Positions 27,294 through 61,683 of a stretch of 64,000 nt of DNA are shown here, one piece after another. The notes under the pieces are model-generated. The model saw only the letters and a list, made by a program, of their open reading frames with translations, was not told the DNA's origin and searched no databases. The stretch is from an uncultured Planctomycetota bacterium (lineage in GTDB: Bacteria; Planctomycetota; Planctomycetia; Pirellulales; Pirellulaceae): positions 11,198 to 75,197 of the forward strand of contig CAVOXY010000056.1 in the NCBI GenBank assembly GCA_963700515.1, given 5' to 3'. Position numbers and translations under genes: made by a program. Position 1 is the first letter of the stretch. Every line of letters starts with the position of its first letter.

Positions 27294-27302
27294 AAACCGC
27301 GT

Positions 27303-31126: not shown

Positions 31127-31236
31127 GAATGCGGAATGCGGAATGCGGAATGCGGAATGCGGAATGCGGAATGCGGAATGCGGACCGGAATGCGGAATGC
31201 GGAATGCGGAATGCGGAATGCGGAATGCGGAATGCG
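31127..31236. repeat. Heptamer array (GAATGCG)n, about 15 units
   Basis: Read directly. One interruption (GACCGGAATGCG) near 31176-31185. Confidence 0.95.
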
Positions 31237-33503: not shown

Positions 33504-33930
33504 ACTTCACCTAATCGGTATCCGAGCAAAAGGAATCACAGTTTTTTTCGGAACATCGGGAAAGACCCGTAAGATCGGCAAGTTGAGGATACTAGGCGCA
33601 TTCGACGATTCGATGGCCGGTCAGGGACTGGCTGTGACTTGGTAAGACGTAACGGCAAATGGAACATCCGGGAGCCGGGTGAGCATGCGGCGATGCGCAG
33701 GAAAGGGATAGTCCCATTTCTGCTCCGCTCGCCGCTGCAGCCGCGTCGGGTTCATCCCGGCGGACTGAGGATTGGCCGGCGACAGGCGATGGATGCCAAC
33801 CAGTGGTCGAGCTGTCACAGGGATGCGCTCGGCCGAGGCCGAAACAGGCCGCGGCTCGAGTCGGTCTCGAACGTGTGCCGGCGTCGATGGACACGTCGGG
33901 GAGCTCGACTCGACGGTGTGTCATGGTGCG

Positions 33931-34127
33931 ACGGTAGCGGACCAGTTGTGGCCCCGCCGGGATGAACCCGACGGAAGCCGGAAGTGGTGGATGCGCACGG
34001 TAGCGGACCAGTTGTGGCCCCGCCGGGATGAACCCGACGGAAGCCGGAAGTGGCGGATGCCGCACGGTTGCGGACCAGTTGTGGCCCCGCCGGGATGAAC
34101 CCGACGGAAGCCGGAAGAGCCGACTTT
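33931..34127. repeat. 66-67-bp tandem repeat x3
   Basis: ACGGTAGCGGACCAGTTGTGGCCCCGCCGGGATGAACCCGACGGAAGCCGGAAGTGG.GGATGC starts at 33931, 33997 and 34064. An inverted partial copy (CCGCGTCGGGTTCATCCCGGCGG) lies at 33742-33764. Confidence 0.9.
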
Positions 34128-34196
34128 TCAACGGTGCCAGCACGCGGCAGCCAATCCGGAATCCATCTCGAGCAGGGTCGGGACTATGGTCCCGAC

Positions 34197-34601
34197 CTAC
34201 GATTGTGCGAACCGAGCGTCAGCGGGGCCTCCGCATCTGGTAGAAGTGCGAGTACTGCATGAAAGTACTGCCGGTCCCAGTGGGCGCAACGCGCGTTGAC
34301 GCCTGTTCGGCGCGGGAACGGGCGCGGCGCGGGCCACTTCCTGGTAGTAGAGGCTGCTACTGCCATCTCCACCAATGAGCGGGGACGTCGCGGGCCCGCC
34401 GCTGGATCGCCTTTCGATTCCACTACCGCGGCGTGGTAGAAACGGAGTCATGAGGGGATCGTAAAAGTCCACGCCGCGGCGCAGAAAATCCGAATAGCCG
34501 CTCGAACGCGGCCGGCTCCCACGCTGGGCCCGCGCTTTGGGGACAGCAGCCAACATCAGGCAGGCAGTCGCTGCGACGATCAGAATTCCCGTGCGTGACA
34601 T
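34197..34601 (-). CDS. Hypothetical secreted protein (possibly frameshifted at 3' end)
   Basis: AGAGGAG lies about 10 nt upstream of the ATG. N-terminal signal peptide MSRTGILIVAATACLMLAAVPKARA. No family recognised. Confidence 0.35.
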   Translation of the reverse strand: MSRTGILIVAATACLMLAAVPKARAQRGSRPRSSGYSDFLRRGVDFYDPLMTPFLPRRGSGIERRSSGGPATSPLIGGDGSSSLYYQEVARAAPVPAPNRRQRALRPLGPAVLSCSTRTSTRCGGPADARFAQS

Positions 34602-36903: not shown

Positions 36904-36979
36904 AACGATTAGGGAATGCGGAATGCGGAATGCGGAATAGAAAGTAACAAGTAACAAGTAACAAGTAACAAGTAACAAA
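36904..36979. repeat. Composite heptamer module AACGATT-AGGGAAT-(GCGGAAT)3 then (AAGTAAC)5
   Basis: Read directly. Positions 36904-36938 are the exact reverse complement of 37866-37900. Confidence 0.95.
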
Positions 36980-36982
36980 TAT

Positions 36983-37802
36983 CTAGAGGCAACAGACGGC
37001 ACTTGGCTCGGGCAGCCCGGCAATCGACTGGAGATGCAGCAGGCGTCGATAGGCGTTCTGACTACCGGGAACGATCAGCACATACAGACAACCGTCACTC
37101 TTCCAGATCCCGACACAGAGATTGCCAGTGGTCGAGTCGGGAATGGCCGACGGAAACTTCGGCAAGTGGCGTCCGAGTCGCGTGCGAATCACCAGCAGAT
37201 AGGCAGACGACTGAGCCGGCGGGACGCTGGCTAAATACGCCACGGCATGTGAATCCCCCAACGCCAACGCCGAAAACTCCTGCCAACCCACCATCGGGAA
37301 CTGCAGCTGCTGGTTCCGCGGCAACCGATCACTTGGCGGTTGAGTCTCCTGCCAGGCTTCCGGATCCAATTTGCCGAGCCACTCGCGAGCGTACTGATCG
37401 ACCTGCGCGACGGTGAGCGTATCGCGCCAGACGAGCAACATAAACGACGACCGCCAACAGGGCCGCGACAGACAACACCGCCCCGGCAGTACTAAGCCAC
37501 CAGAGTCCGCTCGATCCGGTGCCGCCACGAACACCAGCGGGCGTCACCAGCTCGCCGCCCGGCACGGCCTGCTGCCCAGGTTCCTGCTCCACCGCCGCCA
37601 ACAGCCGATCACCCAGACCAGCAGGGACCGGAACATCTCGCATCGCTCGCTGAATCGCCCCGTCCCAGGCCTGAATCGCCTGCAACTCAGCACCTAACGC
37701 CGGATCTTCGGACACCGCCCGCAACAGCGCAGCCATGTCCGGATCAGCCGATTCGGTCGGCTCCGAGCGATAGCATTCCATGAGTTTGCGGAGGTTAGTC
37801 AT
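36983..37802 (-). pseudogene. Anti-sigma factor (single TM), one frameshift as read
   Basis: ORF 37329..37802 has an N-terminal anti-sigma-like domain and a TM helix (WWLSTAGAVLSVAALLAVVVYV). ORF 36983..37534 supplies the extracytoplasmic C-terminal domain. It lies directly downstream of the ECF sigma. Confidence 0.6.
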
Positions 37803-37900
37803 TGGTTATTGGTCACTGGTCACTTGGTTATTGGTCATTGGTCATTGGTCATTGGTCATTGGTCTATTCCGCATTCCGCATTCCGCATTCCGCATTCCCT
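37800..37900. repeat. Heptamer arrays (CATTGGT)n 37800-37865 followed by (ATTCCGC)3-ATTCCCT-AATCGTT 37866-37900
   Basis: Read directly. On the minus strand the last ACCAATG unit supplies the anti-sigma start codon (ATG at 37802). Confidence 0.95.
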
Positions 37901-39073: not shown

Positions 39074-39109
39074 ACGAGCATCTCCCCAAGAGATGCTCGT
39101 TTTTTTTTG
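39074..39109 (+). terminator. Rho-independent terminator
   Basis: ACGAGCATCTC-CCCAA-GAGATGCTCGT stem-loop followed by T9. Confidence 0.85.
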
Positions 39110-39187
39110 GTCATTGGTCATTAGTCATTAGTCATTGTCATTAGTCATTGGTCACTGGTCATTCGGTATTGGTTATTGGTTGGTGGT
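39109..39187. repeat. Heptamer array (CATTGGT/CATTAGT)n, arm 1 of inverted pair
   Basis: Read directly. It degenerates into CGGTATTGGTTATTGGTTGGTGG at the loop side. Confidence 0.95.
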
Positions 39188-39327
39188 TACTTGACAGATA
39201 CCGGTTAGTGCTTGACAGTTGACGGGGGGCGTGCCGGGGCGGATCGGTGCAATACCAGATGAGTCCTTACACTGCCTCTTGTGTCGCACTGCTCGGTAAC
39301 TCGTCGCCATCCCTCCGCCATCGCGAA

Positions 39328-39430
39328 ACCAACCGATGACCAATGACCAATGACTAATGACAATGCAAGTGACAAGTGACCAATGACCAATGACCAATGA
39401 CCAATGACCAATGACCAATGACCAATGACC
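39328..39430. repeat. Heptamer array (ACCAATG/ACTAATG)n, arm 2 of inverted pair; contains the uvrB start codon
   Basis: Reverse complement of arm 1, including the irregular units CATTGT-CATTAGT-CATTGGT next to the loop. Confidence 0.95.
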
Positions 39431-41497
39431 ATCCCTTTGAACTTTGCGCCCCGTACCAACCGGCTGGTGACCAGCCGCAGGCGATCGAGGCTTTGGTGGA
39501 CGCCATCCGGCAGGACCGGCGCCGGCAAGTGCTGTTGGGCGTCACGGGGTCGGGCAAGACATTTACGATGGCCAATGTGATCCAGGCGATCCAGAAGCCA
39601 ACGCTGGTCATCTCGCACAACAAGACCCTCGCCGCTCAGCTTTATTCGGAGTTCCGCGACTTCTTTCCCCATAATTCGGTTCATTACTTCGTCAGCTATT
39701 ACGACTACTACCAGCCCGAAGCCTACATCCCTCAGCGGGACATCTACATCGAAAAAGATGCGTCCATCAATGAAGAAATCGATCGGCTCCGGCTCGCGAC
39801 CACCAGTGCGTTGGTGAGCCGCAGGGATGTGATTGTGGTGGCCAGTGTGTCGAGTATCTACGGGCTCGGTTCGCCGGACGATTACCGCGAGATGATGGTC
39901 GCCTTGGAGCGCGGCGGCCAGATTGACCGTGATGAGATGCTGGCGCGACTGATTGACATTCAGTACGAAAGAAACGACATCAGTTTCGAGCGTGGCCGGT
40001 TTCGCGTCCGGGGCGACTGTGTGGAGATCTGGCCCTCGTACGAGGAGTACGCGGTCCGTGTGGAGCTATGGGGGGACGAGATCGATCAGCTGTCGCTGCT
40101 CAACCCGACCAGTGGCGAGACGATTTCGGTGCAGGATCAGTTATTCATCTACCCGGCCAAGCACTTCGTGATGCCGGAGGAGCGGATTGAGGGCGCGGTC
40201 AAGTTGATCAAACAGGAACTGGATGAGCAACTGGAAAAGTTCCGCCAGGAAGGAAAATTGCTCGAGGCGCAGCGGTTGAGCGCACGCACGCGGTTCGATA
40301 TGGAAATGCTGCTGCAAGCGGGGGTGTGTCCGGGCATCGAGAACTACAGCCGACCGCTGTCCGGTCGCTCGGCCGGCGAGCCGCCTGACACGCTGTACGA
40401 TTTCTTCCCGCACGATTTCCTCCTGTTCGTCGACGAATCACACGTCAGTATTCCGCAAATCCGCGCGATGTTCGCTGGCGATCAGAGCCGCAAACGGACG
40501 TTGGTCGAGCATGGCTTTCGATTGCCCAGCGCGATGGACAACCGGCCCTTGAAGTTCGAAGAATGGGAACAGCGGGCACGTCAAGCCGTGTTCGTGTCGG
40601 CCACGCCTAGCGATTACGAGCTACAACAGACGGGCGGGGAGGTGGTGGAGCAGATCATCCGGCCGACCGGCTTGCTCGACCCGATCATTGAAGTCGTGCC
40701 GGCCCGCAACCAGGTCGTACACCTCCTGGAGGAGATCCGCCAGCAGGGCGAAAATCGGCGAACGGGTCCTGGTGACCGCCCTGACCAAACGACTGGCCGA
40801 AGATCTCTCGGCGTATTTCAGCGAGCAAGGAGTGGCCTGCAAGTGGCTGCATAGTGAGCTGGATGCGTTTGAGCGAGTCGATCTGCTGCGCGACCTGCGC
40901 GAAGGGCGCTTTGAGGCATTGGTCGGAGTGAATCTGCTGCGCGAAGGACTCGACCTCCCCGAAGTGTCACTGGTCGCCATTCTGGATGCCGACAAGGAAG
41001 GGTTCCTCCGCAGCGAAACGTCACTGATCCAAACGATCGGCCGAGCCGCTCGGAACGTCAATGCCAAGGTCATTCTCTATGCCGATAAAATCACCAATTC
41101 CATGCGGCTGGCGATCGACGAGACGAATCGACGTCGAGCGATGCAGGAGGCCTACAACAAAGAGCATGGCATTACGCCCGAGACGATTCGCAAAAACATC
41201 CGAGCGGGCATCGAATCCGACGTGGCAGCTCACCGAGCGGCCAATGCCGCGGTGGGACGAGCGGACGAGGAGCAATACGTGACGGCCGAGTACATGAACG
41301 AGCTGGAGGCCGAAATGCTCGAAGCAGCCGAACAACTGGAATTCGAACGAGCAGCCGCGATCCGCGACCGACTCATGCAACTCAAAGAACACGTCGGTAA
41401 GAAACTCAACCAGGTCGAAGTCAGCTCGTACAAACCCCGTGGCCGCCGCCACAGTTCCGGCTCGTCACAGAAAGTCCCCCGGCCAGGGAAGAAGTAG
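39418..41497 (+). pseudogene. uvrB: Excinuclease ABC subunit B, one frameshift as read
   Basis: 39418..40854 starts [27 protein letters not shown]...[15 protein letters not shown]. 40688..41497 continues [25 protein letters not shown]...[27 protein letters not shown]...[14 protein letters not shown]. The shift is at CAGCAGGGCGAAAAT, about 40745-40760. Confidence 0.9.
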
Positions 41498-41498
41498 A

Positions 41499-41543
41499 GT
41501 CATTGGTCATTGGTCATTGGTCATTGGTCATTGGTCACTGGTC
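41499..41543. repeat. Heptamer array (CATTGGT)n, arm 1
   Basis: Starts 2 nt after the uvrB stop. Confidence 0.95.
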
Positions 41544-41650
41544 CAACTTGTTCCGAACCCATCGTAAGTCGTTGCGCACCTTGACTTATCGTACTACATG
41601 CTGAGCATCGAAATCGTGCACCTTGCGCCGCTGTGGTTCACGACCCCCAC

Positions 41651-41712
41651 TGACCAATGACCAATGACTAATGACTAATGACCAATGACCAATGACACAA
41701 TGACCAATGACT
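41651..41712. repeat. Heptamer array (GACCAAT/GACTAAT)n, arm 2
   Basis: Inverted relative to 41499-41543, with a 107-nt spacer. CTTGACA follows directly. Confidence 0.95.
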
Positions 41713-43684: not shown

Positions 43685-43741
43685 CTACTCACTACTCACT
43701 ACTCACTACTCACTACTCACTACTCACTACTCACTACTCAC
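43685..43741. repeat. Heptamer array (CTACTCA)x8
   Basis: Read directly. Its reverse complement is the GTGAGTA family seen at 46931. Confidence 0.95.
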
Positions 43742-44298: not shown

Positions 44299-46939
44299 AT
44301 GAGAATACCGGCGATCATGTCTTCTCGGTGTATGTGGCTGATCTATGTTTCCGTGCTCGTCAGCCTTGTTATCCAAACAGGTTGCAGTCGACGCCGCTTT
44401 CGCCTGGCAGCCGACGACCAGGCACAGGAGTTGATTGCCGAGAAGGGTGCCATGTGCCCGGATTGGGCGCTGCGCGACTGGAGCGTCTATGGTGACCAGC
44501 GCAGTCGCTACTACGACAACTGCAACCCCGACGGTCCTCCGATGCCACCCGACGACCCGTTGTCCCACGAGTTCATGTGCGAAGTGGATGGCATGAAGGG
44601 CTGGAAGCACTGGAACGACTTCGGCGTGCGCAGCCAGTTGGACAATAAGCGTTGGCGCGAACAGCTCGTGCAGTACGCCGAGTTCAACGAGAAGGACGAA
44701 GTGGTGCTGGATATTAACTCGGCACTTCAGCTGGCCCTGATCCATTCGCCATCGTACCAGCAGCAACTCGAAACCATTTACTTATCGGCGCTGGACGTCA
44801 GTACGGAACGGTTTCGGTTTGAAGTCCAGTTCTTTGGCGGCAACGGCACGCGTTTCACGCACGAGGGACGACTCGTCGGTAATCCTCTGCCGTCGAACCG
44901 CGGAGTGGGACTTGGTGGGACGCGGAACACGTCGAGCGGCGAGCGGAACTTGTTGCGCAACTCGTCCGACGTCTGGATGGAAAAGCAGTTCGCGACAGCC
45001 GGCGAGTTGGCGGTTGGGTTTGCCAACTCGATCGTGTGGACGTTTGCCGGCCCCGATACCAATGCCACCGGCTCCCTGCTCAATGCCAACCTGGTCCAAC
45101 CGTTGCTGCGCGGAGCGGGCCGGGACGTGGCGTTGGAACAGCTGACGATTGTCGAGCGGGCCTTGCTGGCCAACCTCCGCGCGTACCAGCGTTATCGCCA
45201 CGGATTCTATACGCAAGTGGCGGTCGGAGAACTGGGTGTCTCCGGCCCGTCGCGCCGTGGCGGCTTCTTCGGCGGCACGGGCTTGACCGGTTTCACGGGC
45301 CAAGGCTCCGGCGGTCTGGGTGGTGTCGGCTCGGCGACCGGCTTCGGCCGCTCCGGGTTCAGTACCGGCGGTACGGGAGGCGGCACGGGTGGCGGGACAG
45401 GCCTGGCAGGCGGTGGTGCCGGGATCGTGGGCGGCTTCATCGGACTGCTGCAGCGGCTGCAGGAGATCCGCAACACCGAAGACAGTCTCGCCCTGCAATT
45501 GAACCAGCTCGCCAAGTTGGAAGCCTACCACAGGGCGGGTTTGATCACGCTGATCCAAGTCGACAACTTGCGGCAGAACGTCGAGACCGAGCGGGCCAAT
45601 CTGCTGCAGTCGCAAAATGCTTTCGAAGCCACCCTCGATTCGTTCAATACCAACACCATGGGGCTCCCCCCCGATCTTCCCGTGGCGCTGAACGACAGTC
45701 TGATTCGCCAATTCCAGTTCCTCGATCCACGCGTCACTACGATGTCTCGCGAGTTGTCGATCTTGCGGTCGTCCGTGGGCGACCTCCCGGCCACGCCCAG
45801 CATCGAACAGCTGACGACCGCCGTCGCAACCGCCCGCGGTATCGAACAGAAGTTGGGGAATCACTTCGACAATATTCATGACGACTATGCCACGCTCGAC
45901 CAGCGGACCCCCGCGCGATTCACCACCTTGCCGCCAACGGAAGTCGAACGGTTACAGAGCGAAATGCAACAAGAAACGCGAGAAGCTGGCCGAAATCGAG
46001 TCCCGCTACGCGCGCTTCAAAGAAGAACTCGACGCCATCAACGACGGAGTGACCCCGGACAACGTTACCGAGTCACTCGGGACATTGGTGGAGTGGCTTG
46101 GCGCATTCGACCGGCTGATCGAGGAAGCATCGCTGGTCCAGGCCCGAGCGCGACTGGAGTCGGTCATTATGGAACCGATTCATCTGGCATCGCAAGAAGC
46201 GCTCCAGATCGCGCAAGCCAATCGGCTCGATGTGATGAACAACCGGGCGGCCCTCGTCGATTCGTGGCGATTGATCGCCTTCAACGCCGACGCGTTACAG
46301 TCCGACCTGACCGTGAATCTCGGTGGCGATATCAGCACCACCGGCAATAACCCACTCAAATTCCGCAGTCCCACCGGATCGATGCGAGCATCCCTGCAGA
46401 TCGACGCGCCCTTCACGCGACTGTTGGAACGTAACAACTATCGCCAGTCGCTGATCGACTATTCTCAAGATCGACGGCAGTATATCCAGTTCATGGACGG
46501 CATTCACCAGACGTTGCGGAACCTGCTGCGGAACCTGGAACAGCTGCAAACGAACCTGGAAATCCAACGCCGCGCGGTGGCCATCTCGATCCGCCGAGTG
46601 GACCTGACACGCGAGAACCTGTCGCAACCCCGACCACCGGCAGCACCCGGCGAACCTCCGGCCATGTTCGGCGATACGGCCGCCATGGACCTGCTCAACG
46701 CACTGTCCGATCTGCGTAATACCCAAAACAACTTCATGAGCGTCTGGTTGAACCATTACGCCACGCGGATGGTGCTCGAACGCGACCTCGGGATCATGGA
46801 ATTGGACGAAGACGGCCGCTGGATCGAACAACCCGGACGTTTGCCTCAGCCCAGCGATCTGGAGGACCTTGAACTGCCGCCACCGGTCCCCCAAAGCCTG
46901 ATCGAAGAACTCGACCACGCCGTTGCCGTTAGTGAGTAG
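44299..46939 (+). pseudogene. TolC-family outer membrane efflux protein with Gly-rich insert, one frameshift as read
   Basis: The ATG at 44299 gives lipoprotein-type signal LVSLVIQTGCS. SALQLALIHSPSYQQQLETIYLSALDVSTERFRF and LVQPLLRGAGRDVALEQL are in 44212..46350. ALQIAQANRLDVMNNRAALVDSWRL...LQIDAPFTRLLERNNY is in 45878..46939. The shift is near 45950-46000. Confidence 0.75.
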
Positions 46940-47013
46940 TGAGTAGTGAGTAGTGAGTAGTGAGTAGTGAGGAGTGAGTAGTGAGGAGTGAGGAGTGAGG
47001 AGTGAGGAGTGAG
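46931..47013. repeat. Heptamer array (GTGAGTA)x5 then (GTGAGGA)x5
   Basis: It begins at the last codons of the TolC-like gene. The stop TAG is part of the first unit. Confidence 0.95.
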
Positions 47014-47288: not shown

Positions 47289-47755
47289 CATTCCGCACCC
47301 CGCACCCCGCACTCCGCACCCCACACCCCACACCCCACATTCCGCATTCCGCATTCCGCATTCCGCACTCCGCATTCCGCACTCCGCACTCCGCATTCCG
47401 CATTCCGCATTCCGCATTCCGCACCCCGCACCCCACACCCCACACCCCACACCCCACATTCCGCATTCCGCACTCCGCATTCCGCACCCCGCACTCCGCA
47501 CTCCGCACCCCGCATTCCGCACTCCGCACCCCGCACTCCGCACCCCGCACCCCGCACCCCGCACCCCGCATTCCGCACCCCGCACCCCGCACTCCGCACC
47601 CCGCACCCCGCACCCCGCACCCCGCACCCCGCACTCCGCACTCCGCACCCCGCACCCCGCACTCCGCACTCCGCACTCCGCACTCCGCATTCCGCATTCC
47701 GCACTCCAAACCCCGCACTCCGCATTCCGCACTCCGCATTCCGCATTCCGCATTC
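47289..47755. repeat. 467-bp heptamer array, about 66 units of CAYYCCR (CATTCCG, CACTCCG, CACCCCG, CACCCCA)
   Basis: Parsed unit by unit. The phase is kept except for one irregular stretch near 47706-47713. A short inverted partner AGGGAATGCGCAATGCGGAAT lies at 47198-47218. The long ORFs here (PHSAFRIPHSAF...) are repeat artefacts. Confidence 0.95.
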
Positions 47756-50277: not shown

Positions 50278-50386
50278 ACTGGTCATTGGTCAGTCTGGTC
50301 ATTGGTCATTGGTCACTGGTCATTGGTCATTGGTCACTGGTCATTGGTCACTGCGTGCATTGAGTCATTGGTCATTGGTCATTGGC
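50278..50386. repeat. Heptamer array (CATTGGT/CACTGGT)n, arm 1
   Basis: Starts 7 nt after the adaptor stop. Confidence 0.95.
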
Positions 50387-50430
50387 ATGGTTCGGCTGAC
50401 TCAATACCAAGTGCATCCTCCGACCCTTAC

Positions 50431-50517
50431 AAATGACTAGTGACTAGTGACTAGTGACCAATGACTAGTGACAAATGACTAATGACTAGTGACTAATGAC
50501 TAGTGACCAACCACCAA
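50431..50517. repeat. Heptamer array (TGACTAG/TGACCAA/TGACTAA)n, arm 2
   Basis: Inverted relative to arm 1, with a 44-nt spacer. It ends 20 nt before the permease start. Confidence 0.95.
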
Positions 50518-51870: not shown

Positions 51871-51946
51871 TTGGTTACTTGTTACTTGTTACTTGTTACT
51901 TGTGCACGTGTCATTCCGCATTCCGCATTCCGCATTCCGCATTCCC
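51871..51946. repeat. Composite heptamer module (GTTACTT)4 then (CATTCCG)4-CATTCCC-TATTCGTT
   Basis: Same module as 36904-36979 in the opposite orientation. It starts 4 nt after the permease stop. Confidence 0.95.
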
Positions 51947-52372
51947 TATTCGTTCCTGATGAGACCACCTGTGCGCGGTGCGAGTAAGACCGTAGGACGG
52001 GATCCCATCCCGTCCCAGCTCGCACGGCTATCTCGCTCCTACGGCACTTCTCCGGCAGACTCCGCAGGTGGGTGGAAAAGCTCGTCCAAGAGCCTGCCAG
52101 GTGCACTTTTTGCCGCCCCTGCGTAAACGTCCGTTTCCTGCCAATTTGCCTCCGCCCGGCTAGGCCCCAAGGGGCGCAGCGCAACGGGAACTGTCCCCCG
52201 ATTCACCACCGACTCGTTGCGGGTGGCGAAGCCAAGTCACGGACGGAGCGATCGCTACAATCCGATCATAAAATCTCCGGATTGTCACGATATCAGTGAT
52301 TTCACGCACCTCACGGGCGAAAAAAGTTTATGGTTTGGTGGACTCACGCCTTTGGGGAGAGGCGTCGTGTCA

Positions 52373-52431: not shown

Positions 52432-53722
52432 CTTGTAGAGCCACGCCTTCACACCACTGGGCCGCACGCAGCAGCGCTTCATCCTGGCCGTCGCGGGCGA
52501 TCAACTGCAGCCCGATCGGCAACCCCTCGGCCGACTTGCCGCAGGGGACAGTCATGGCGGGAAACCCGCAAAAGCTCCAGGGTGAATTGAACGACGGGTC
52601 ACCGGTCGTCTCACGCGGCGGCGGCGGAGTCGTTGTGGCGGGTGTCACCCAAATGGACGGTCCCTAGCCGAACGCTTGTCGCATCTCATCGATGAATTCC
52701 CTTCGATGTCGCAACGCGGCAGCGTAGTCAAGCGAGGAAGTGCGCAGGCCTTCTTCGATCAGCATGGCGATCCCCGGTGCGTATCGATCGCTCTGCCGCG
52801 CGTAGAGTGCGCGATGGTACCGGGCCAACTCCACCGCCATGATGCAGCGATGCTGAGCCAGCACTTCGTCGAACCGCGGGGGCAAGCGAACTGCTTCCAC
52901 CTGCGCACCAGCCGCGACTAACGAAGCCACTGCGGAATCGCAGCCTGAGATTAAAGACGGGTCGGCCCTCTCACGAAAGAACTCGGCAGCAACACCGAAT
53001 GTCGGCGGAGCCGTCTCGTCCAGCGCGCTGTCGTTGCCAAGCGGGGCGGATGCGATTCCCTCGACGGCAGTCCAGATCGGTCCCACATCTGCCACGTTGC
53101 GCACGAGCGGTCCTACATGATCCAAATGGACACTGACCGGTACGATCCCCTGCATGCTCCAGCGTCCCACGGTCGGTTTCAGCCCCACGACGCCACAATA
53201 CGCCGCCGGTCGCACAATCGAACCACCGGTTTGCGTGCCGAGTGCCGCGTAGCAGGAACCGGTCGCCACGGCCACAGCACTGCCACTGCTCGACCCGCCC
53301 GGAGTGCGGTGCGCGTCCCACGGGTTCACCGTCTCGGCCGGGTCAAAACAAGCGAACTGCGTCGTCACCGTCTTCCCGATCACGATCGCGCCGGCCGCTC
53401 GCAACCGTGCGACCACGGGCGCGTCCGTTTCGGCATCGCGCGCGTCGGTCAGCGGCGAACCGGCGCGAGTCGGCATGCCGGCCACATCGATGATGTCCTT
53501 GACACCCAGCGGGATCCCGTGCAACGGCCCGCGGTACGTGCCACGATGCAGCTCGCGTTCCAGCGATTCAGCCCTGCGCAAAGCCGCTTGGCCATCCACA
53601 TGCACCCAAGCATGCAGAGCCTGGTCGGTTTGCTCAATTCGCTGCAGACATTCGGCCACCAAGCTTTGTGGTGACACGCTGCCGACACGAATGGCCTCAG
53701 CGGCTTGAATGAGGGAAAGCAT
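52421..53722 (-). pseudogene. Amidase-signature family enzyme (GatA-like), one frameshift as read
   Basis: 52664..53722 has GPLHGIPLGVKDIIDVAGMPTRAGS and GGSSSGSAVAVATG...GTQTGGSIVRPAAYCG. The C-terminus is in 52421..52648 (FNSPWSFCGFPAMTVPCG...GLPIGLQLIA). The shift is near 52650-52670. Confidence 0.8.
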
Positions 53723-53724
53723 TG

Positions 53725-53785
53725 CTGGTGGTCACTGGTCACTGGTCATTGGTCATTGGTCACTGGTCACTGGTCACTGGCTATT
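53725..53785. repeat. Heptamer array (TGGTCAC/TGGTCAT)n, arm 1
   Basis: It abuts the amidase start codon (53722) and reads ACCAGTG/ACCAATG in the sense of that gene. Confidence 0.95.
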
Positions 53786-53942
53786 GACTTTGGTCTCCTA
53801 GGGTTCACTTCAGGACGATGGTGGAGGGAATTGATCAAGGGAATCGCATGTCGTCATTACGATCCAATTCCGTCCACGCGAGCGTCGCCGGAGTGGTGTG
53901 TGGGATGCGTCGCCGGCCACTGCCAGCGACACACCTGACATA

Positions 53943-54016
53943 GTGACCAATTGAAGCAATGACAAGTGACCAATGACCAATGACCAATGACCAATGACCA
54001 ATGACCAATGACCAAT
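53943..54016. repeat. Heptamer array (GACCAAT)n, arm 2
   Basis: Inverted relative to arm 1, with a 157-nt spacer. It lies just downstream of the leuD stop. Confidence 0.95.
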
Positions 54017-54038
54017 ACAGCGTACAACCTGCCGGCGG

Positions 54039-54650
54039 CTAACCGCTGACGATCCCCCGTTCTCGCTCGTACTGAGTGATTTTCTCCTCTTGCTGCAGCG
54101 TCACAGCGATATCATCGAGGCCCTCGAGGAGCGATTGTTGGCGGAACGGATCGATGGAGAAGCTGACATCCAGCTGCCCTGCGTCGGAGATACGACAGTT
54201 CTCCAGATCGATCAGCAGCTGGTATCCGGGCGTCTGGGCGACGAGTTGAAAGACCTGCTCAACCGTCTCCTCTGGCAGGCGAATGGGCAGCACGCCGTTC
54301 TTGAAGCAGTTGTTGTAGAAGATATCGGCAAAGCTGGGAGCAATCACCGCTCGCAATCCGTAGTCGGCCAAGGCCCACACCGCATGCTCACGGCTGGAAC
54401 CAGAACCGAAATTACGTCGCGAAACGAGGATCGATGCGCCCTGGTACTGCGGTTGATTCAGCTCGAACTCAGCGTTGTCGCTGCCATCTTCGTGGAATCG
54501 CCAATCGAAGAACAGAAACTGGCCGAACCCGGTCCGTTCGATCCGTTTGAGGAATTGCTTGGGAATAATCTGATCGGTATCGACGTTCGCTCGATCGAGC
54601 GTCGCCACCAGTCCACGATGTTTGCGGAACGGTTCCATGGTATTTTTCAC
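54039..54650 (-). CDS. leuD: 3-isopropylmalate dehydratase small subunit
   Basis: MEPFRKHRGLVATLDRANVDTDQIIPKQFLKRIERTGFGQFLFFDWRF...ILVSRRNFGSGSSREHAVWAL. The likely start is the ATG at 54638. Confidence 0.9.
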   Translation of the reverse strand: MKNTMEPFRKHRGLVATLDRANVDTDQIIPKQFLKRIERTGFGQFLFFDWRFHEDGSDNAEFELNQPQYQGASILVSRRNFGSGSSREHAVWALADYGLRAVIAPSFADIFYNNCFKNGVLPIRLPEETVEQVFQLVAQTPGYQLLIDLENCRISDAGQLDVSFSIDPFRQQSLLEGLDDIAVTLQQEEKITQYERERGIVSG

Positions 54651-54774
54651 CTACGTAGAACGGACTTCAGTCCGTTCCATGCGTTTGGTTGCGAGTTAAA
54701 TTCAGGATACGAAGAAGCAAGGGTCGAGCGTCCTCGGGATGGAGATCCTTTTCGCCAGCGGACTGCAGTCCGTG

Positions 54775-56164
54775 CTACGTATAGTTCCAAGCGCGGATGT
54801 CGACCAGGTGTCCGGTGATGGCGGCGGCGGCGGCCATGGCGGGGGAGACGAGGTGCGTGCGGCCACCTTTTCCCTGCCGGCCTTCGAAGTTGCGATTACT
54901 TGTCGAGGCACATCGTTCACCCGGTGCGAGCTTGTCCGGGTTCATGGCCAGGCACATACTGCACCCCGCTTCACGCCACTCAAAACCGGCCTCCCGAAAG
55001 ACGCGATGCAGGCCTTCATTTTCGGCTTGGGCTTTCACCGGAGCGCTGCCCGGCACGACCATGGCGCTCGACGTGCGGCGACACGTGGTGACCGCGGACG
55101 ACTGCCGCCGCGGCCCGCAGGTCCTCGATGCGCGAGTTGGTGCAGGAACCGATGAACACGCGGTCGATCGTGATATCGGTCATCGGAGTGCCGGGCTCCA
55201 ATCCCATGTACTGCAAGGCGTGGGCGGCCGATTTCCGCTGCGTCTCATCGGCGAAATCGGCGGGATCGGGCACTCGATCCACCACCGGCACGACCTGGCC
55301 GGGGTTCGTGCCCCACGTGACCTGAGGAGCGATCCGTGCGGCATCGAATTGGCGGACGATATCGTACTGTGCACCCTCATCGCTGGGCAGTTGCTCCCAC
55401 CGAGCGACCGCCGCATCGAAGTTGGCGGGTGCGTACTTGCGGGACTGCAGGTAGTCGAACGTGGTCTGATCGGGAGCGATCATGCCGGCGCGCGCCCCGG
55501 CCTCGATCGACATATTGCAGACCGTCATCCGCTCTTCCATGCTCAACGCCCGAATGGCGCTGCCGGTGTACTCGAGCACATAGCCCGTTCCGCCATCGGT
55601 CGTCAGCTGGCCGATCAAGTACAGGATCAGGTCCTTGGCGGTCACGCCGCGTGCGAGCAGGCCGTTGCAACGCAATTCCATGGTCCGCGGCTTGGATTGC
55701 AGCAGTGTCTGGGTCGCCAGCACGTGCTCGACTTCGCTGGTCCCGATGCCGAACGCCAGCGCCCCAAAGGCTCCGTGCGTGGCCGTGTGACTGTCGCCAC
55801 AGACGATCGTCATCCCGGGCTGCGTGTAACCCAGTTCGGGGCCAATCACGTGCACAATTCCCTGCTGTGGGTCGTTCAGATCGTACAGCCGGATCCCGAA
55901 CTGCTCACAGTTGTTGCGCAGCGTGTCGACCTGCTGGCGAGAAATCGGGTCCTCAATCGGCTTGTCCCGGTCGGTGGTCGGGATATTGTGGTCGGGCGTG
56001 GCAATCGTCAGTTTCGGACGTCGCACCTGACGGCCAGCCAGTCGCAGCCCCTCGAACGCCTGGGGACTGGTCACTTCGTGGACCAGGTGCAGGTCGATGT
56101 AGAGGATCGTCTGCTTGCCCGGTTCCGCGTGGACAACGTGGCTGTCCCAGATCTTCTGGAACAT
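54775..56164 (-). pseudogene. leuC: 3-isopropylmalate dehydratase large subunit, one frameshift as read
   Basis: [11 protein letters not shown]...[13 protein letters not shown]...[24 protein letters not shown] is in 55016..56194. The C-terminus [29 protein letters not shown] is in 54775..55062. The shift is near 55060-55090. Confidence 0.9.
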
Positions 56165-56285
56165 GGTACGCGGCAGAGAAGGCGGTGAAACCATCGGAGT
56201 ATCCGTCTAGAGCTAAAAGAATGAGTGCTGAGTTTGAGCCCCAAGTATAGTGGACTGACCGTAATTCAAGTAGGTGCGTTCGGCC

Positions 56286-57110
56286 ACGTAGCCACCCCCG
56301 TAGCTGAGCCCCGTAGCTGAGCCCGCCAGGGCTCAGCCGCAGCGCCACACGCCCTCGTAGCTGAGCCCGCCAGGGCTCAGCCGCAGCGCCACACGCCCTC
56401 GTAGCTGAGCCCGCCAGGGCTCAGCCGCAGCGCCACACGCCCTCGTAGCTGAGCCCGCCAGGGCTCAGCCGCAGCGCCACACACCCTCGTAGCTGAGCCC
56501 GCCCAGGGCTCAGCCGCAGCGCCACACGCCCTCGTAGCTGAGCCCGCCCAGGGCTCAGCCGCAGCGCCACACGCCCTCGTAGCTGAGCCCGCCAGGGCTC
56601 AGCCGCAGCGCCATACGCCCTCGTAGCTGAGCCCGCCCAGGGCTCAGCCGCAGGCCACCGCCCTCGTAGCGAGCCCGCCCAGGGCTCAGCCGCAGCGCCA
56701 CACGCCCTCGTAGCTGAGCCCGCCAGGGCTCAGCCGCAGCGCCATACGGCCGAACGCACCCGCTGAAGCCTGGGCGGCTTCAGCTACGACTTGATCCGTA
56801 TGCCGCTGCCGCTGAAGCCTCGGCGGCTTCAGCTACGTAGCTGAGCCCGCCGAGGGCTCACTTTTCTTTCCGAATATCACAATTCCGTGAGGGAATACTC
56901 CCCCTTTCCGTGATTCACTTGATGAAGACGTGTCGTAGCTGAGCCCGCCAAGGGCTCAGCTGAAGCGCGGACCATCACACCGCCGACTCTGAAGCCTGGC
57001 GGCTTCAGCTACGTGCGTCTGAAGCCTGGCGGCTTCAGCTACGTGCGTCTGAAGCCTGGCGGCTTCAGCTACGTGTGTCTGAAGCCTGGCGGCTTCAGCT
57101 ACGTGTGTGG
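56286..57110. repeat. REP family-2 arrays (left flank of RAYT-like gene): 44-bp units, mixed units, then 33-bp units
   Basis: CGTAGCTGAGCCCGCCAGGGCTCAGCCGCAGCGCCACACGCCCT has a 44-bp period (GCGCCACACG at 56341, 56385, 56429...). TCTGAAGCCTGGCGGCTTCAGCTACGTG.G occurs x4 at 56990-57115. Each unit contains a 9-bp-stem hairpin. Confidence 0.9.
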
Positions 57111-57728
57111 ATGACCTCCGCAGGGTTCACTACTAACGGAGATTGTCCAGTGAATCAACGAAAACACAGTTACCTAAAACGATTACCTGCCCAATACTAC
57201 AGGGGACATGCGTATGTCCATTGGTCAATGACGATGGAAGACCGATCCACAGGCTGGCTCACGCAGGGTTTTCACAACTGCTTTCGTGAGATCTTGATTC
57301 ACACGCTATTCCGTCACGCGATCACGTGCCCGATCTATTGCTGCATGCCGGACCATATTCACCTGTTATGGATGGGAATCCTGGAGAGCTCAGACCAACG
57401 CACGGGAATGCAGTTTCTCCGAAAGCATTTGAATCGAGAACTTGAAGAACTGGGGATGCGCCTACAATCGCAGCCATATGATCGTGTTCTGAAAAATGGA
57501 AGCAGAAACGAGAAATCCATTGAAGATCTTGTCGAGTACATCGCACGTAACCCAGAACGGAAAGGGTTGGTTCCGCCAGATCGATACCGCGATTATGCAT
57601 TCACCGGCGCCATCGTCCCAGGGTATCCCGAACTGAGAATATGGGACGACAGATACTGGGACCGCTTCTGGGCCACATATTCGTATTTGCGCAAGAACGG
57701 TCTGTTGCGATTGGCAGCTTCTTCGTAG
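57111..57728 (+). CDS. RAYT-like Y1 (HUH) transposase-family protein
   Basis: HUH motif MPDHIHLLWMG. C-terminal VEYIARNPERKGLV is the typical Y-I-x-x-N-P motif of REP-associated tyrosine transposases. The tracked start at 57075 lies in a REP unit, so the ATG at 57111 is preferred. The stop TAG is part of a CGTAGCTGAGCCC unit. Confidence 0.6.
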   Translation: MTSAGFTTNGDCPVNQRKHSYLKRLPAQYYRGHAYVHWSMTMEDRSTGWLTQGFHNCFREILIHTLFRHAITCPIYCCMPDHIHLLWMGILESSDQRTGMQFLRKHLNRELEELGMRLQSQPYDRVLKNGSRNEKSIEDLVEYIARNPERKGLVPPDRYRDYAFTGAIVPGYPELRIWDDRYWDRFWATYSYLRKNGLLRLAASS

Positions 57729-58336
57729 CTGAGCCCGCCGAGGGCTCAGCTGATCCGCGATCCGTATGCTGCTGCTGCTGAAGCCTCGGCGGCTTCAGCT
57801 ACGGCGATCCGTAGGCTGCTGCTGCTGAAGCCTCGGCGGCGTCAGCTACGGCTTGATCCGTAGGCTGCTGCTGCTGAAGCCTCGGCGGCGTCAGCTACGG
57901 CTTGATCCGTAGGCTGCTGCTGCTGAAGCCTCGGCGGCGTCAGCTACGGCTTGATCCGTAGGCCGCTGCTGCTGAAGCCTGGGCGGCTTCAGCTACGGCG
58001 TGATCCGTAGGCCGCTGCTGCTGAAGCCTCGGCGGCTTCAGCTACGGCTTGATCCGTAGGCCGCTGCTGCTGAAGCCTCGGCGGCGTCAGCTACGGCTTG
58101 ATCCGTAGGCCGCTGCTGCTGAAGCCTCGGCGGCTTCAGCTACGGCGTGATCCGTAGGCCGCTGCTGCTGAAGCCTCGGCGGCGTCAGCTACGACGCGAT
58201 CCGTAGGCCGCTGCTGCTGAAGCCTCGGCGGCTTCAGCTACGACTTGATCCGTATGCCGCTGCTGCTGAAGCCTCGGCGGCTTCAGCTACGACTTGATCC
58301 GTAGGCCGCTGCCGCTGATGCCTGGCGACTTCAGCC
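57723..58336. repeat. REP family-2 array (right flank): about 11 units with a 49-50-bp period
   Basis: GCTGAAGCCTCGGCGGC(G/T)TCAGCTACGGC.TGATCCGTAGGC.GCTGCT units (GTCAGCTACG at 57841, 57890...). The hairpin is GCTGAAGCC/GGCTTCAGC. Confidence 0.9.
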
Positions 58337-59945
58337 CACCAGGTGGAGGCCTTGGCATGCGACCACCGTGGAGCATGTTCACATTGCTCCAGCGCCTGAG
58401 CCAATTCGGTAGCAGCGGCAAAGCGATCGTCAGGTGATTTAGCCAGGCAGCGCATGACGACCGCTTCCAGGTCCGCGGGAATGTCCGGCTGGATCAGCGA
58501 CAGCGCCGGCGGCTGGCGTTGAGCATGGGCCACGAGGATCTTGATCGGCTGCGTCCCCTCAAAGGGAGGCCGGCCGCTCAGCAAATAATAGGCCACGACA
58601 CCCAACGAATAGATATCGCTACGTTCATCCGGCTCACTGTCCCCGGTCGCCTGCTCGGGAGACATGAACAGCGGTGAACCGGTGATCGAGCCGTCGTGAG
58701 TCAAATCGGGCGACTCGAAACTACCTACCGGTTTGACCATGCCGAAGTCCAAGAGCTTCGCCACGTCGTATACGTTCCCACGCTGCGCGGCGAAGATATT
58801 GGCCGGCTTGATATCGCGGTGAATCAACCCCATCGCATGAGCTTCCGATAACGCTTCACAAGTCTGCCGCAACAGGAAGATCACGCGTTCGGGCGGCAAC
58901 GGCCCATAACGGGTCACCAGTTCGGCCAGCGAGAGTCCGGGGAGATATTCCATGACGTAATAGAACGTACCATCGGCCGCTCGACCATAATCAAAGATGT
59001 CGATACTGTTCCAGTGCGAGAGCTTGGCCGTGGCGCGGACTTCACGTTCGAATCGTGCCAGCGTGCGTGGGTCACCAGCTTTTTCCGGCCGAATCACCTT
59101 GATCGCGACCGGCCGCTTCATCAGTTGATGCTCGGCCAGGTACACCTCCCCCATCCCGCCGCCACCAAGTCTTTCACCGAGCTTATACTGCCCCAATTGC
59201 TTCGCCTCAAAGGCCTCGAGACGCAGCGCGTTGATCGTATAAACTCCGATCACGGAAACCACTGCGCTGACCAGCATGATCAGAGCGCCTGACGCCATCG
59301 CCCACCAATCAGCCACAATCAGTTCGGCGCACAAGCTGTCGGTCGCCCAGAGGACGACAGTCAAAACGATGGGAGAGAGCGCCATCGCCCCGACCACCAC
59401 AGCTGCTCGTCGCCATGTATTGGGAATGAACATCGCGTAGGTATAGATCAGCATCAACCAGGGCGCATTGGGCGCGGCAGCATGTTATCCCGCACCGCAC
59501 ACTCGCGCATCATGGTGTACTGGAAGGCAAAAAAGAACACGGCAGGCGACCCGAATATCAACAGCTCTTCAATGCGGAGCGTCCGGCCGCTCGAGTCGCA
59601 GGTCCGGCAGAGCGGCATGGCGGAACTGAGCAATACCAGAAACACGACGAGCTGGCCGAAGAACGTGCCGTCTATGGCGACCGGCGATGTAACGAAGAAC
59701 GCCGCAATCACACGCCAGACAATGAAGACGCCGAACCCCAACGCCAACGCCAAGGCGGCCACGCGCAGCCGCGACCGTAGCAGGACCCGCGTTTCCCGCG
59801 TCAGCTCGGCACCGCTCCCCTCAACCAGCCGGACATACGGCCCATGCAGCGCCGGCGACACTTCCGCCGAGATACCCGCTTGACTGACGTCCCACGTTTC
59901 GTCATTCGGCCCCAGCTGGTGAGGCCCCTCTTTCATGCTATCCAT
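58234..59945 (-). pseudogene. Membrane-anchored Ser/Thr protein kinase (Hanks type), one frameshift as read; last ~30 codons encoded by REP units
   Basis: 59454..59945 has the N-terminal TM region. 58234..59457 has further TM helices, then LGGGGMGEVYLAEH, VAIKVI, HRDIKPANIF, DFGMVK and SPEQA. The shift is near 59457-59480. Confidence 0.85.
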
Positions 59946-60128
59946 GCGTCCGGCTCGTTAGGTAATCTCCCTCAAGTCAGCCCAGTCAGTACGCTCTGTC
60001 ATCCTACACAGTTCATCCCGCCCAGGCCAACCGGCTAACAACCACACCACAGAGGGGAACAAGACCAGCCGCTCGCTCGAAGTGAGTCGTGGGAACGTCC
60101 TGAGAACGCATGCGAAATGGAGTGCTCA

Positions 60129-60218
60129 CAAGTAACAAGTAACAAGTAACAAGACAATGACCAATGACCAATGACAGACAATGACCAATGACCAATGACC
60201 AATGACCAATGACCAACG
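60129..60218. repeat. Heptamer arrays (AAGTAAC)3 then (AATGACC)n
   Basis: Read directly. They lie directly downstream (minus sense) of the epimerase stop. Confidence 0.95.
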
Positions 60219-60223
60219 ACGAC

Positions 60224-61234
60224 TCACACACCGAAATACTCGCGATACCACTGCACAAAGCGCTCGATTCCGACTTCAATCGGTGTGGCGGGGCGGAAAC
60301 CGACATCGCGTATGAGATCATCGACGTCGGCGTACGTAGCGGGCACGTCGCCCGGTTGCATGGGGAGCAGGTTCTTCTCGGCGGTCTTTCCCAGTGCCTT
60401 CTCCAGCGTCGCAATGAAATGCTCCAATTCCACCGGCTGATTGTTCCCGATGTTGTAAATGCGATACGGAGCTCGACTGGTTCCCGGGTCCCCGTGGTCC
60501 CCCGACCATGCCGAGTTAGTGGTGGGAATGTGATCGGTCACGCGGACCACACCTTCCACGATATCGTCGATGAACGTGAAGTCGCGGCGCATCTTGCCGT
60601 GATTGAACACGTCGATCGGTCGGCCCTCGAGGATCGCCTTGGTAAAGAGGAAGAGCGCCATATCCGGGCGTCCCCAGGGCCCGTAAACCGTAAAGAAACG
60701 CAAGCCCGTGGTGGGCAGTTCATAGAGATGGCTGTAGGTGTGTGCCATCAGTTCGTTCGCCTTCTTCGTCGCGGCGTACAGGCTGACCGGGTGGTCCACG
60801 TTGTGGTGGATCGAGAACGGCATCTTCGTGTTCGCTCCGTACACGCTGCTCGACGAGGCATAGACGAGATGTTTGACACCCGAGTGGCGACAGCCCTCCA
60901 GGATATTGACGAATCCCACCAGATTACTGTCCACGTAGGCATGCGGATTCTCCAGGGAATAACGCACGCCTGCCTGAGCGGCCAGATTGACCACCTTGTC
61001 GAACTTCTCCCGCTGGAACAGTTTTCCAATGGCTCCGCGATCGGCCAGTTCCATTTCCTGAAAGCTGAACCCCAATACGGATGTCAGCTTCGCCAGGCGA
61101 TCCCGTTTCAACTGCACATCGTAGTAGTTGTTCAGGTTATCCAGCCCGACCACGGTGTCCCCCCGCTGCAGAAGCCGGTGGCTGAGGTGAAAACCGATGA
61201 AGCCGGCGGCGCCGGTGACCAGGATATGTGCCAT
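60224..61234 (-). CDS. NAD-dependent nucleotide-sugar epimerase (UDP-glucuronate 4-epimerase-like, SDR family)
   Basis: The ATG at 61234 gives [47 protein letters not shown]...ASSSSVYG...YAATKKANE. The specific substrate is inference. Confidence 0.8.
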
Positions 61235-61454
61235 GTCGGGAACCTGTTTCGGGGCGAAAAAGACCACACAATCCGCAGAACCGGCCAACGCGGCTCGCAG
61301 TCATCCAATCCATATGCACTAACTAACGATTACGCAAATTCTACCTCGGTAGGGTGGCAAATTTCTGTCCCCTGGCCTACCGTAACGAATGCATTTTCTG
61401 CACCCATGTTATAGTAATACGATACGTTCCAGGCGTCCAAGGGCTGGATGGATT

Positions 61455-61625
61455 CGTAGCGGAAGCCGCCAAGACGTAGCTGAAGCCGCCAAGGCTTCAG
61501 CGTGAAGCCGCCAAGGCTTCAGCAAGGGAAGGGCTGCACACACGCCGACGCGGCTGAACCCTGGCGGGTCCAGCTACGGGGCCGGGCCGACGCGGCTGAA
61601 CCCTGGCGGGTCCAGCTACGGGGGC
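61455..61625. repeat. Dispersed REP family-2-like hairpin units
   Basis: CGTAGCTGAAGCCGCCAAGGCTTCAGC, GTGAAGCCGCCAAGGCTTCAGC, and GCCGACGCGGCTGAACCCTGGCGGGTCCAGCTACGGGG x2. Confidence 0.8.
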
Positions 61626-61683
61626 GGGGGAAGATTCGTGCGAATCAAGAAGACCGAGACACAGAGAGAGACAGAGGAAAGGC

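Follow-up and report, generated by a model that had tools for sequence, protein, structure and literature searches.

The closest well-described counterpart of the locus reported here is the REPtron of Escherichia coli K-12, in which a single HUH-Y1 gene (rayT/yafM; protein structure 4ER8), encoding a REP-associated tyrosine transposase (RAYT), is flanked by its own repetitive extragenic palindromic sequences (REPs), the GTAG-footed Y and Z2 hairpins, and in which inverted pairs of the two subtypes form three REP doublets (REPINs) (PMC6006769). The present locus lies at positions 56286-58336 of a 64,000-nucleotide stretch of DNA, hereafter the window, that covers positions 11,198 to 75,197 of contig CAVOXY010000056.1 (assembly GCA_963700515.1) of an uncultured planctomycete of the family Pirellulaceae. 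Its organization is similar: the region of about 2.0 kb between leuC and a Ser/Thr kinase gene contains one open reading frame (ORF) on the + strand and two blocks of GTAG-footed hairpins. The locus is very probably a REPtron, that is, a divergent RAYT with an HUH-Y1 fold set amid its cognate REPs, as had been proposed from the letters of the window (hereafter the original prediction).

REPs associated with tyrosine transposases have been described in the same phylum and the same family, in Rhodopirellula baltica, where the GTAG-20, GTAG-21 and GTAG-22 REPs were catalogued and an abundance of tyrosine transposase genes with their flanking repeats was noted, with several such pairs in the one genome, and where REPs within coding regions, REPs that overlap the transposase gene at its 3′ end and tandem reiteration of REPs with flanking DNA were reported (Di Nocera et al., 2013; PMC3733652). 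GTAG-21 appears to have its REP consensus in common with the family found here, as the intragenic GTAG-21 peptide SRIRQEF, back-translated, reads AGCCGAATTCGCCAAGAATTC and matches the consensus GTAGCnGAAnTCGCnAGAnTTCnG. The stem sequence differs (CTGAGCCC and CTGAAGCC), and head-to-tail repeats, described as absent or rare in most genomes (PMC3733652), are dominant at the present locus; the same study leaves the protein subfamily undefined. The REPtrons Ma and Mb of Marinomonas sp. MWYL1, which belongs to a different phylum and has RAYTs of groups 2 and 3, likewise have REPs concentrated beside tnpAREP, a concentration that Corneloup et al. (2021; PMC8266576) read as the result of a recent arrival after which the REPs multiplied locally. 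This recent-arrival picture is that given by the empty sites described below for the present locus. The Marinomonas proteins were shown to cleave at CT or CA; no empty-site comparison is mentioned in the available part of that paper, and evidence of tnpAREP mobility is stated in it to be lacking. REPtrons in Proteobacteria are already known, as are GTAG REPs and several REP-flanked tyrosine transposase genes in R. baltica, and the novelty of the locus was overrated in the original prediction, given the R. baltica precedents. The category of element is unchanged. The locus is unusual only in the 10-12-fold amplification of its repeats and in being wholly absent from the corresponding site of its nearest sequenced relatives; what the analysis adds is an arm-specific amplification, a hybrid kinase junction, a phylum-wide RAYT subfamily that scores below standard thresholds, and the empty sites.

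The ORF between the repeat blocks is real and contains the expected HUH motif (PDHIHLLW) and tyrosine motif (YIARNPERKGLV); its predicted length of about 205 amino acids corresponds to a start at ATG 57111, and the database gene call, beginning at GTG 57150, gives 192 amino acids. The HUH motif is H69-I-H71 and the putative catalytic tyrosine is Y130, located in EYIARNP within a YIxxNP helix that is followed by a glycine, a hydrophobic residue and a valine; H69, H71, Q106, Q108, D111 and Y130 are invariant among 18 homologues. Homology to Y1 transposases and RAYTs, on which the original prediction depended, was found in three ways. The NCBIfam hidden Markov model (HMM) REP_Tyr_transpos matches the protein at E=7e-10 (39 bits). 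The program hhalign aligns it with E. coli RayT at E=3e-4 with the HUH, GTAG-contact and tyrosine motifs in register (MPDHIHLLW/LPEHMHCIW, LQSQPYDRVLK/WQPRFWEHAIR and EYIARNPERKGLV/DYIYINPVKHGWV), H69 and H71 being aligned with E. coli H59 and H61. An AlphaFold2 model with a predicted local distance difference test score (pLDDT) of 79.5 has as its top PDB match 4ER8_A, the REP complex of the E. coli RAYT (E=1.8e-6, TM-score for the target 0.66), with ISDra2 and IS608 TnpA next. A sequence-profile search of the PDB returned only marginal ISDra2 matches (E about 0.5), and recognition of RAYT homology therefore needed hhalign and the structure search.

In E. coli RayT, residues Q95, E100, H101 and R104 contact GTAG (PMC6006769). 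Their equivalents are kept or conservatively replaced in the present family: Q106 and D111 do not vary, position 112 is usually H in the homologues and R in the window protein, and position 115 is usually R and is K in the window protein, E-to-D and H-to-R changes being known in subclasses 2.5 and 2.7 (PMC6006769). Despite E. coli RayT being the best structural match, with HUH, contact and tyrosine motifs aligned, identity in the structural alignment is 18%, and the planctomycete proteins carry an extra conserved C-terminal segment (PGYPEL...YWDRFW). Their motif signature (DH[IM]H, [LF]Q, YIARNP) does not exactly fit any of the motif sets tabulated in PMC6006769. As judged from these comparisons and the model, the protein is a predicted divergent RAYT-like HUH-Y1 enzyme, nearer to TnpA_REP than to IS200 transposases, and is predicted to be catalytically intact, its HUH and tyrosine motifs having been kept. 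The gene has a GC content of 49.9% and a third-position GC content (GC3) of 0.56, compared with 58.6% GC for the window and a GC3 of 0.67-0.80 for the neighboring genes. It looks like a domesticated single-strand-DNA transposase gene.

The 0.8-kb and 0.6-kb blocks of tandem hairpins on the two sides of the ORF were found where the original prediction had placed them, and pattern searches for their units gave 12 and 21 matches, against 0.00 expected from 100 shuffles. Of the predicted periods, 44 and 49-50 were recovered as 44 and 49, and the period of 33 was replaced by one of 30 in the Tandem Repeats Finder (TRF) analysis (Table 1). A scan for GTAG followed by a hairpin recovers every unit at the locus, and each unit is a canonical REP with an unpaired 5′ GTAG(C) foot, a stem of 8-9 bp and a GNNA-type loop of 4-5 nt; 29 perfect or near-perfect REPs adjoin the RAYT gene in the hairpin scan. 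When folded as single-stranded DNA, single units and doublets form hairpins with z-scores of -2.8 to -4.3. The two hairpin types that had been distinguished exist as described and are two subtypes of one GTAG-tagged REP family in opposite orientation. Subtype A (GTAGCTGAGCCC-N4/5-GGGCTCAGC) occurs at the locus only on the + strand, with 12 scanned copies in 56313-56960 and one more at 57725, and subtype B (GTAGCTGAAGCC-N4/5-GGCTTCAGC) only on the - strand, with 2 + 4 + 11 copies.

The description of the two types can be refined further, as they are the two arms of inverted doublets. Three head-to-head doublets are present, each consisting of A on the + strand followed by B on the - strand, with 77 nt separating the outward-facing GTAG ends; the basic repeat unit is this 77-nt A/B doublet, which resembles a REPIN or a bacterial interspersed mosaic element (BIME). 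In each doublet, one arm together with part of the linker is reiterated head-to-tail, namely A 10 times, B 4 times and B 12 times, an amplification of a single arm (4-12 times) that sets the locus apart from that of E. coli. Further differences from E. coli are the perfect stems with GNNA loops here and the bulged stems there, and the concentration of REPs at the gene here compared with about 600 REPs spread through the genome there. In the BIME-2 elements of E. coli, the tandem reiteration of REPs reportedly reaches about a dozen copies, and it is the whole inverted Y-Z2 pair that is said to be repeated (work of Gilson and Bachellier); if so, the repetition of only one arm, which gives same-orientation arrays, is a difference of the present locus. 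The unit boundaries showed no constant CT or CA cleavage dinucleotide: in A units, but not in B units, CT is located one base 5′ of GTAG, so that no cleavage site can be inferred from sequence. A sigma-70 scan revealed no promoter-like site.

Within the window, this repeat family (family 2) is confined to 56296-58335 and to a third cluster at 61455-61628, which was absent from the original prediction. This cluster contains a subtype B REP on the + strand (61476), half-REPs and, at 61553 and 61595 on the - strand, REPs of a further subtype, C (GTAGCTGGACCC...GGGTTCAGC). Tandem duplications of half-REPs, comprising GTAG and the 5′ arm, sometimes with the loop, and having a period of 13-20 nt, were also observed beside RAYT genes in independent lineages (window 56296-56324 and 61455-61523; L002 540-588; L004 4762-4813; L056 5731-5818; L062 4763-4840; L064 5056-5098, the L numbers denoting database loci), and their recurrence hints at a specific way of REP breakage or slippage.

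A homology search retrieved 784 proteins at E<=0.001, the top matches being 55-65% identical and 190-200 amino acids long; the named top matches come from Planctomycetota, several of them labelled RayT by JGI, and the best database relative is 64-65% identical. An exact-sequence search of public assemblies for the RAYT gave no match. The family is carried by roughly 200 genomes, and statistics for it were obtained from 80 homologous Planctomycetota loci with 52-64% identity. GTAG followed by an 8-4-8 hairpin has a density of 2.31 per kb up to 1.5 kb from the gene and of 0.112 per kb beyond (about 20-fold), and such a hairpin lies within 1.5 kb in 79 of the 80 loci, on both sides in 72. Because the sequences were selected as hairpins, the percentage of paired stem positions is not evidence, and the usable evidence consists of covariation, unpaired invariant positions and GTAG enrichment. 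On these measures, stems vary by lineage, with double changes at all 8 stem pairs; no variation is seen in GTAG or at loop positions G13 and A16, and almost none at C5; and the tetranucleotide preceding the hairpins is GTAG in 478 cases, 28 times as often as the next commonest (17). Compensatory stem changes around a fixed GTAG(C) and G..A loop, together with a slowly evolving protein, make the family a data set for the study of hairpin recognition by RAYTs.

In 45 of the 80 loci, tandem arrays of 2-5 copies lie no more than 2 kb from the gene; the arrays of the present locus are the longest seen. The original prediction that the RAYT stop codon is encoded by a repeat unit holds, TAG 57726-57728 being the TAG of a GTAG REP, and its further suggestion that repeats had invaded neighboring coding sequences stands for the kinase tail but not for this stop codon: in 25 of 79 loci the stop is the TAG of a + strand REP, and in 54 of 74 no more than 30 nt separate the stop from the first REP, so that the REP-borne stop is a design feature of the family rather than an invasion. 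Exact subtype B REPs also occur on 37 metagenome contigs from several samples and other organisms, where B is typically the + arm of a 65-77-nt head-to-head doublet with GTAGCTGAACCC or GTAGCGGAACCC as partner. None of these 37 contigs bears a RAYT gene, which indicates that the doublet behaves like a REPIN elsewhere. Three metagenome-assembled genomes (MAGs) contain two loci of the RAYT subfamily each (L002/L007 in JTS-RE308, L020/L067 in MB_PLM_1 and L028/L076 in VAR_39_metabat_103_sub), with REP variants common to both loci in one MAG and different stems in another.

Detection of the subfamily depends on the threshold. The classification of Y1 proteins by Quentin et al. (2018; PMC6006769) took matches to Pfam Y1_Tnp at E<0.01 as its starting point. 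With this model, the window protein gives E=0.03-0.04, and E<=0.1 is reached by only 10 of the 18 homologues and the gathering score by none (0/18); a start at E<0.01 would thus miss some members, and the subfamily may be under-counted in surveys based on Pfam Y1_Tnp.

The window contains a second RAYT-like gene (27303-27758, - strand) in the interval 26056-29019, termed locus 1. Its protein matches Pfam Y1_Tnp strongly (E=5.5e-22), and its signature (DHIH / WQ / YIRNQKEHH) is that of subclass 1.2 of Quentin et al., a subclass described as not associated with REPs (PMC6006769). The gene lies between mosaic arrays of 1.2 kb and 1.1 kb with periods of 80, 98, 308 and 388, formed by an unrelated repeat family (family 1). 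Profile comparison of the two proteins found only the HUH motif in common, and the two genes are not close paralogues. Family 1 repeats occur within the window at locus 1 and as a single copy at 11720, and the two families do not mix between the two loci, in agreement with the original prediction that each RAYT has its own unrelated repeats.

The junctions of the locus with its neighbors were resolved by comparison with orthologues of the flanking genes. The 80 homologous RAYT loci show no synteny with the window beyond paralogous kinases and are therefore unsuited to an orthologous-site comparison, for which kinase orthologues were used instead. In four relatives (L083, L084, L086 and L087) the kinase gene is directly followed by leuC and leuD, with an amidase gene next in L084, L086 and L087; the kinase–leuC spacer measures 155-665 bp, and neither a RAYT homologue nor a family 2 REP was found in the 5-8 kb on each side of the kinase. 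L083 and L084 derive from the MAGs ERZ25039549 and ERZ25039603. The flanking genes are 76-91% identical to those of these relatives, compared with 64-65% for the best RAYT relative anywhere, and in a neighbor-joining (NJ) tree of the kinase the window protein groups with those of L083 and L084, with L086 and L087 outside. This comparison, together with the low GC and GC3 of the RAYT gene, suggests that the whole REPtron was recently gained in this lineage.

The kinase orthologues are single proteins of 560-575 amino acids with 82-86% identity, and their alignment with the window kinase runs to WWAE, at the end of the array (58335), beyond which the tails are unrelated and comprise 17-35 amino acids in the orthologues. 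At the DNA level, the window tracks its relatives through TGGTGGGCTGAAGT and then passes into a degenerate REP. Since the native WWAE codons resemble GT[AG]G-GCTGAAG, the junction lies within microhomology. About 31 codons at the end of the kinase gene, together with its stop, are REP-encoded, close to the 30 or so that had been proposed. At the leuC end, about 100 nt separate the left array from the start codon of leuC (ATG at 56194; about 90 nt had been estimated), and the upstream leuC element CTAC-N21-22-CTATACT, conserved in three aligned relatives, is intact, the array starting a few tens of bases beyond it.

Several observations count against interpreting the locus as a recently gained REPtron whose RAYT propagates the repeats. 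The REP_Tyr_transpos score of 39 bits is under the cut-off of 80, and the Pfam Y1_Tnp match (E=0.03-0.04, 14.5-14.9 bits) is under the cut-off of 23. At position 105, which corresponds to E. coli W94, the window protein has L and the homologues have F or L, the role of W94 having been called unclear (PMC6006769). REPs are barely dispersed within the 64-kb window, with one extra cluster only, and the head-to-tail units that include linker DNA, together with the tandem half-REPs, are explained by slippage or unequal crossing-over just as well as by the chemistry of the RAYT. Indel errors in the assembly make exact copy numbers, unit lengths and the distinction between GCCA and GCCCA loops uncertain. 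The case for a gain depends on an NJ tree of one gene and on how the databases are sampled, independent losses in the relatives being the alternative. The growth of the arrays is where another explanation comes closest: the REPs may have been seeded once and expanded to 10-12 copies as ordinary minisatellites, by slippage or unequal recombination alone, without involvement of the RAYT, which may be inactive. Array units that take in the linker DNA beside the hairpin, half-REPs of 13-20 nt in tandem here and at several related loci, the array–kinase junction within GCTGAAG microhomology and the reiteration of REPs with flanking DNA described by Di Nocera et al. (PMC3733652) make this account plausible, although it is probably not correct, as the catalytic residues are intact and invariant, and the presence of arrays no more than 2 kb from the gene at 45 of 80 loci and the 20-fold rise in REP density within 1.5 kb of it point to a gene-linked process. 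Moreover, it touches the amplification step only and is compatible with the identity of the locus as a REPtron. The long arrays could also be products of mis-expansion or mis-joining in an error-prone long-read assembly, and both the frameshifts in leuC and the kinase gene, which reveal indel errors, and the homopolymer-type differences between units (GCCA and GCCCA loops) are of the kind that it would produce. Such an artefact is nevertheless very unlikely, since the units differ by substitutions that follow no regular order (TTC and GTC stems, for example), the flanks join conserved genes correctly, like arrays occur in independent assemblies of related genomes, and many short-read contigs break right beside the gene.

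The empty sites in the four syntenic relatives could also reflect the insertion of an autonomous insertion sequence (IS) of the IS200/IS605 type, in which the gene and same-orientation hairpins (B on the - strand, A on the + strand) moved as a unit into the kinase–leuC spacer. REPs on the same strand lie on both sides of the gene, the GC content of the gene is below that of its neighbors, and the Y1 HUH fold, which is related to that of the IS608 and ISDra2 TnpA proteins, the recognition of single-stranded DNA hairpins and a guide tetranucleotide 5′ of the hairpin are features in common with those elements. Unlike IS200/IS605 elements, however, the locus has no defined left and right ends and no tnpB-like large ORF beside the gene; its tyrosine motif is YIARNP (YIxxNP, class 2 type) rather than Y---Q, with Y1_Tnp below threshold; and its closest HMM and structural matches are RAYTs and not IS200 proteins. 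The gene is present in one copy in the window and has no near-identical copy in the database (best match 64-65%); it is conserved like a host gene, the homologues being found largely one per locus, at 52-65% identity across the phylum and always among REPs, while REP doublets occur without the gene on the 37 metagenome contigs. With the literature reporting no evidence of tnpAREP mobility (PMC8266576), an autonomous IS is unlikely. Finally, regularly spaced palindromic repeats are also a property of CRISPR arrays and of structured RNAs, and weak Rfam matches were obtained (such as isrG at 33 bits, its gathering score being 100), but the Rfam scan gave nothing at the gathering score, no ORF was identified as cas-like in 53000-61500, and the segments between hairpins are themselves repeated and hence are not unique spacers; a CRISPR-like or structured-RNA array lacking transposase chemistry has practically no chance of being the explanation and is rejected.

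For the REPtron interpretation, a mechanism can be outlined by analogy with the RAYTs of E. coli, Stenotrophomonas and Marinomonas. The RAYT would bind the folded REP on single-stranded DNA and read the GTAG foot through its conserved Q/D/H(R)/R(K) patch; Y130 would then cleave at a nearby dinucleotide, forming a 5′-phosphotyrosine link, and the strands would be rejoined. Such cleavage and rejoining may seed and spread REPs, with slippage or unequal recombination probably also involved in local tandem growth. The arriving locus would have replaced the original tail of the kinase at the GCTGAAG microhomology and spared the leuC promoter. It can be suggested only tentatively, as a rather doubtful extension, that the RAYT gene and its doublets arrived as a unit after the lineages split, either because the Y1 chemistry of the RAYT acted on flanking REPs of the same orientation or through horizontal transfer with joining at microhomology, and that single doublet arms were then amplified in place. 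If this were true, the locus would be a young REPtron caught in the act and would provide sequence evidence for tnpAREP mobility, evidence that is currently held to be lacking (PMC8266576). The empty sites, the arm-specific amplification and the microhomology junction bear on how REPtrons arrive and how REPs multiply.

Table 1. Coordinates of the features of the locus and its surroundings (positions in the window).
Feature	Position	Strand	Remarks
Tandem half-REPs, GTAG + 5′ arm, period 13	56296..56324	+	Outer edge of left array; TRF, sequence
Subtype A REPs, head-to-tail, GTAGCTGAGCCC-N4/5-GGGCTCAGC	56308..56748	+	10 copies of 44-45 nt; TRF (period 44, 10.0 copies, 96% matches), pattern scan, ssDNA fold
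Doublet 1, head-to-head A(+)/B(-), amplified arm A	56710..56787	.	GTAG-to-GTAG 77 nt
Tail-to-tail B(-)/A(+) pair with CTACGTAG junction, then T-rich run (terminator-like)	56811..56860	.	
Unique AT-rich spacer, 74 nt, 44.6% GC	56861..56934	.	Within left repeat block
Doublet 2, head-to-head A(+)/B(-), amplified arm B	56935..57012	.	
Subtype B REPs, head-to-tail, GTAGCTGAAGCC-GCCA-GGCTTCAG	56988..57105	-	4 copies of 30 nt; TRF period 30, 3.9 copies
RAYT-like HUH-Y1 gene	57150..57728	+	192 aa; alternative ATG 57111, 205 aa
Doublet 3, head-to-head A(+)/B(-), amplified arm B	57725..57802	.	A REP provides RAYT stop TAG 57726-57728
Subtype B REPs, head-to-tail, 12 copies of 49 nt	57746..58335	-	TRF period 49, 12.1 copies; perfect (TTC) and mismatched (GTC) stems in irregular order
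REP-encoded kinase end, last ~31 codons + stop	58234..58335	-	
Junction pseudo-REP, kinase codons TGG TGG GCT GAA GT (WWAE) merging into last degenerate REP unit	58314..58345	-	
Ser/Thr kinase gene, convergent with RAYT, frameshift near 59457	58234..59945	-	First ORF part 58234-59457
leuC, divergent from RAYT	55016..56194	-	Upstream CTAC-N21-22-CTATACT element kept between gene and array
Third small cluster of the same REP family	61455..61628	.	Between epimerase gene and next ORF
Heptanucleotide arrays	31127-31236, 36913-36978, 37798-37898, 39107-39431, 41499-41711, 43685-43741, 46930-47013, 47292-47752, 50280-50507, 51874-51945, 53729-54016, 60128-60220		

In the neighboring genes, frameshifts split leuC (54775-56194; near 55016-55062) and the kinase gene (near 59457), the orthologues of which are single ORFs, and the middle of a carbamoyltransferase-like ORF (29393-30901) looks garbled. 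The leuC gene is also split in L083, a relative from a long-read assembly, and the frameshifts are therefore probably indel errors and do not mark pseudogenes. Heptanucleotide tandem arrays fill many intergenic regions of the window, among them (GAATGCG)x16 and (TCCGCAC)x66, the latter spanning 461 bp; such arrays are often paired, mutually inverted and bracket a core of 100-160 bp, as between the amidase gene and leuD, where the pair is (TGGTCAC/T)n and (CAATGAC)n. A 66-bp tandem repeat of 2.9 copies at 33927-34117 is about 73-75% identical to positions 179-307 of metagenome contig L093, which also bears a subtype B REP, a resemblance that suggests a related organism or a shared repeat. Isolated GTAG hairpins of another sequence, GTAGG[TA]CGGGA...TCCCG[AT]CC, were observed in the window at 34176-34200 (- strand) and 51992-52015 (+ strand) and in L084 at 13256 and 13366, and may represent a third, dispersed GTAG REP family in these genomes.

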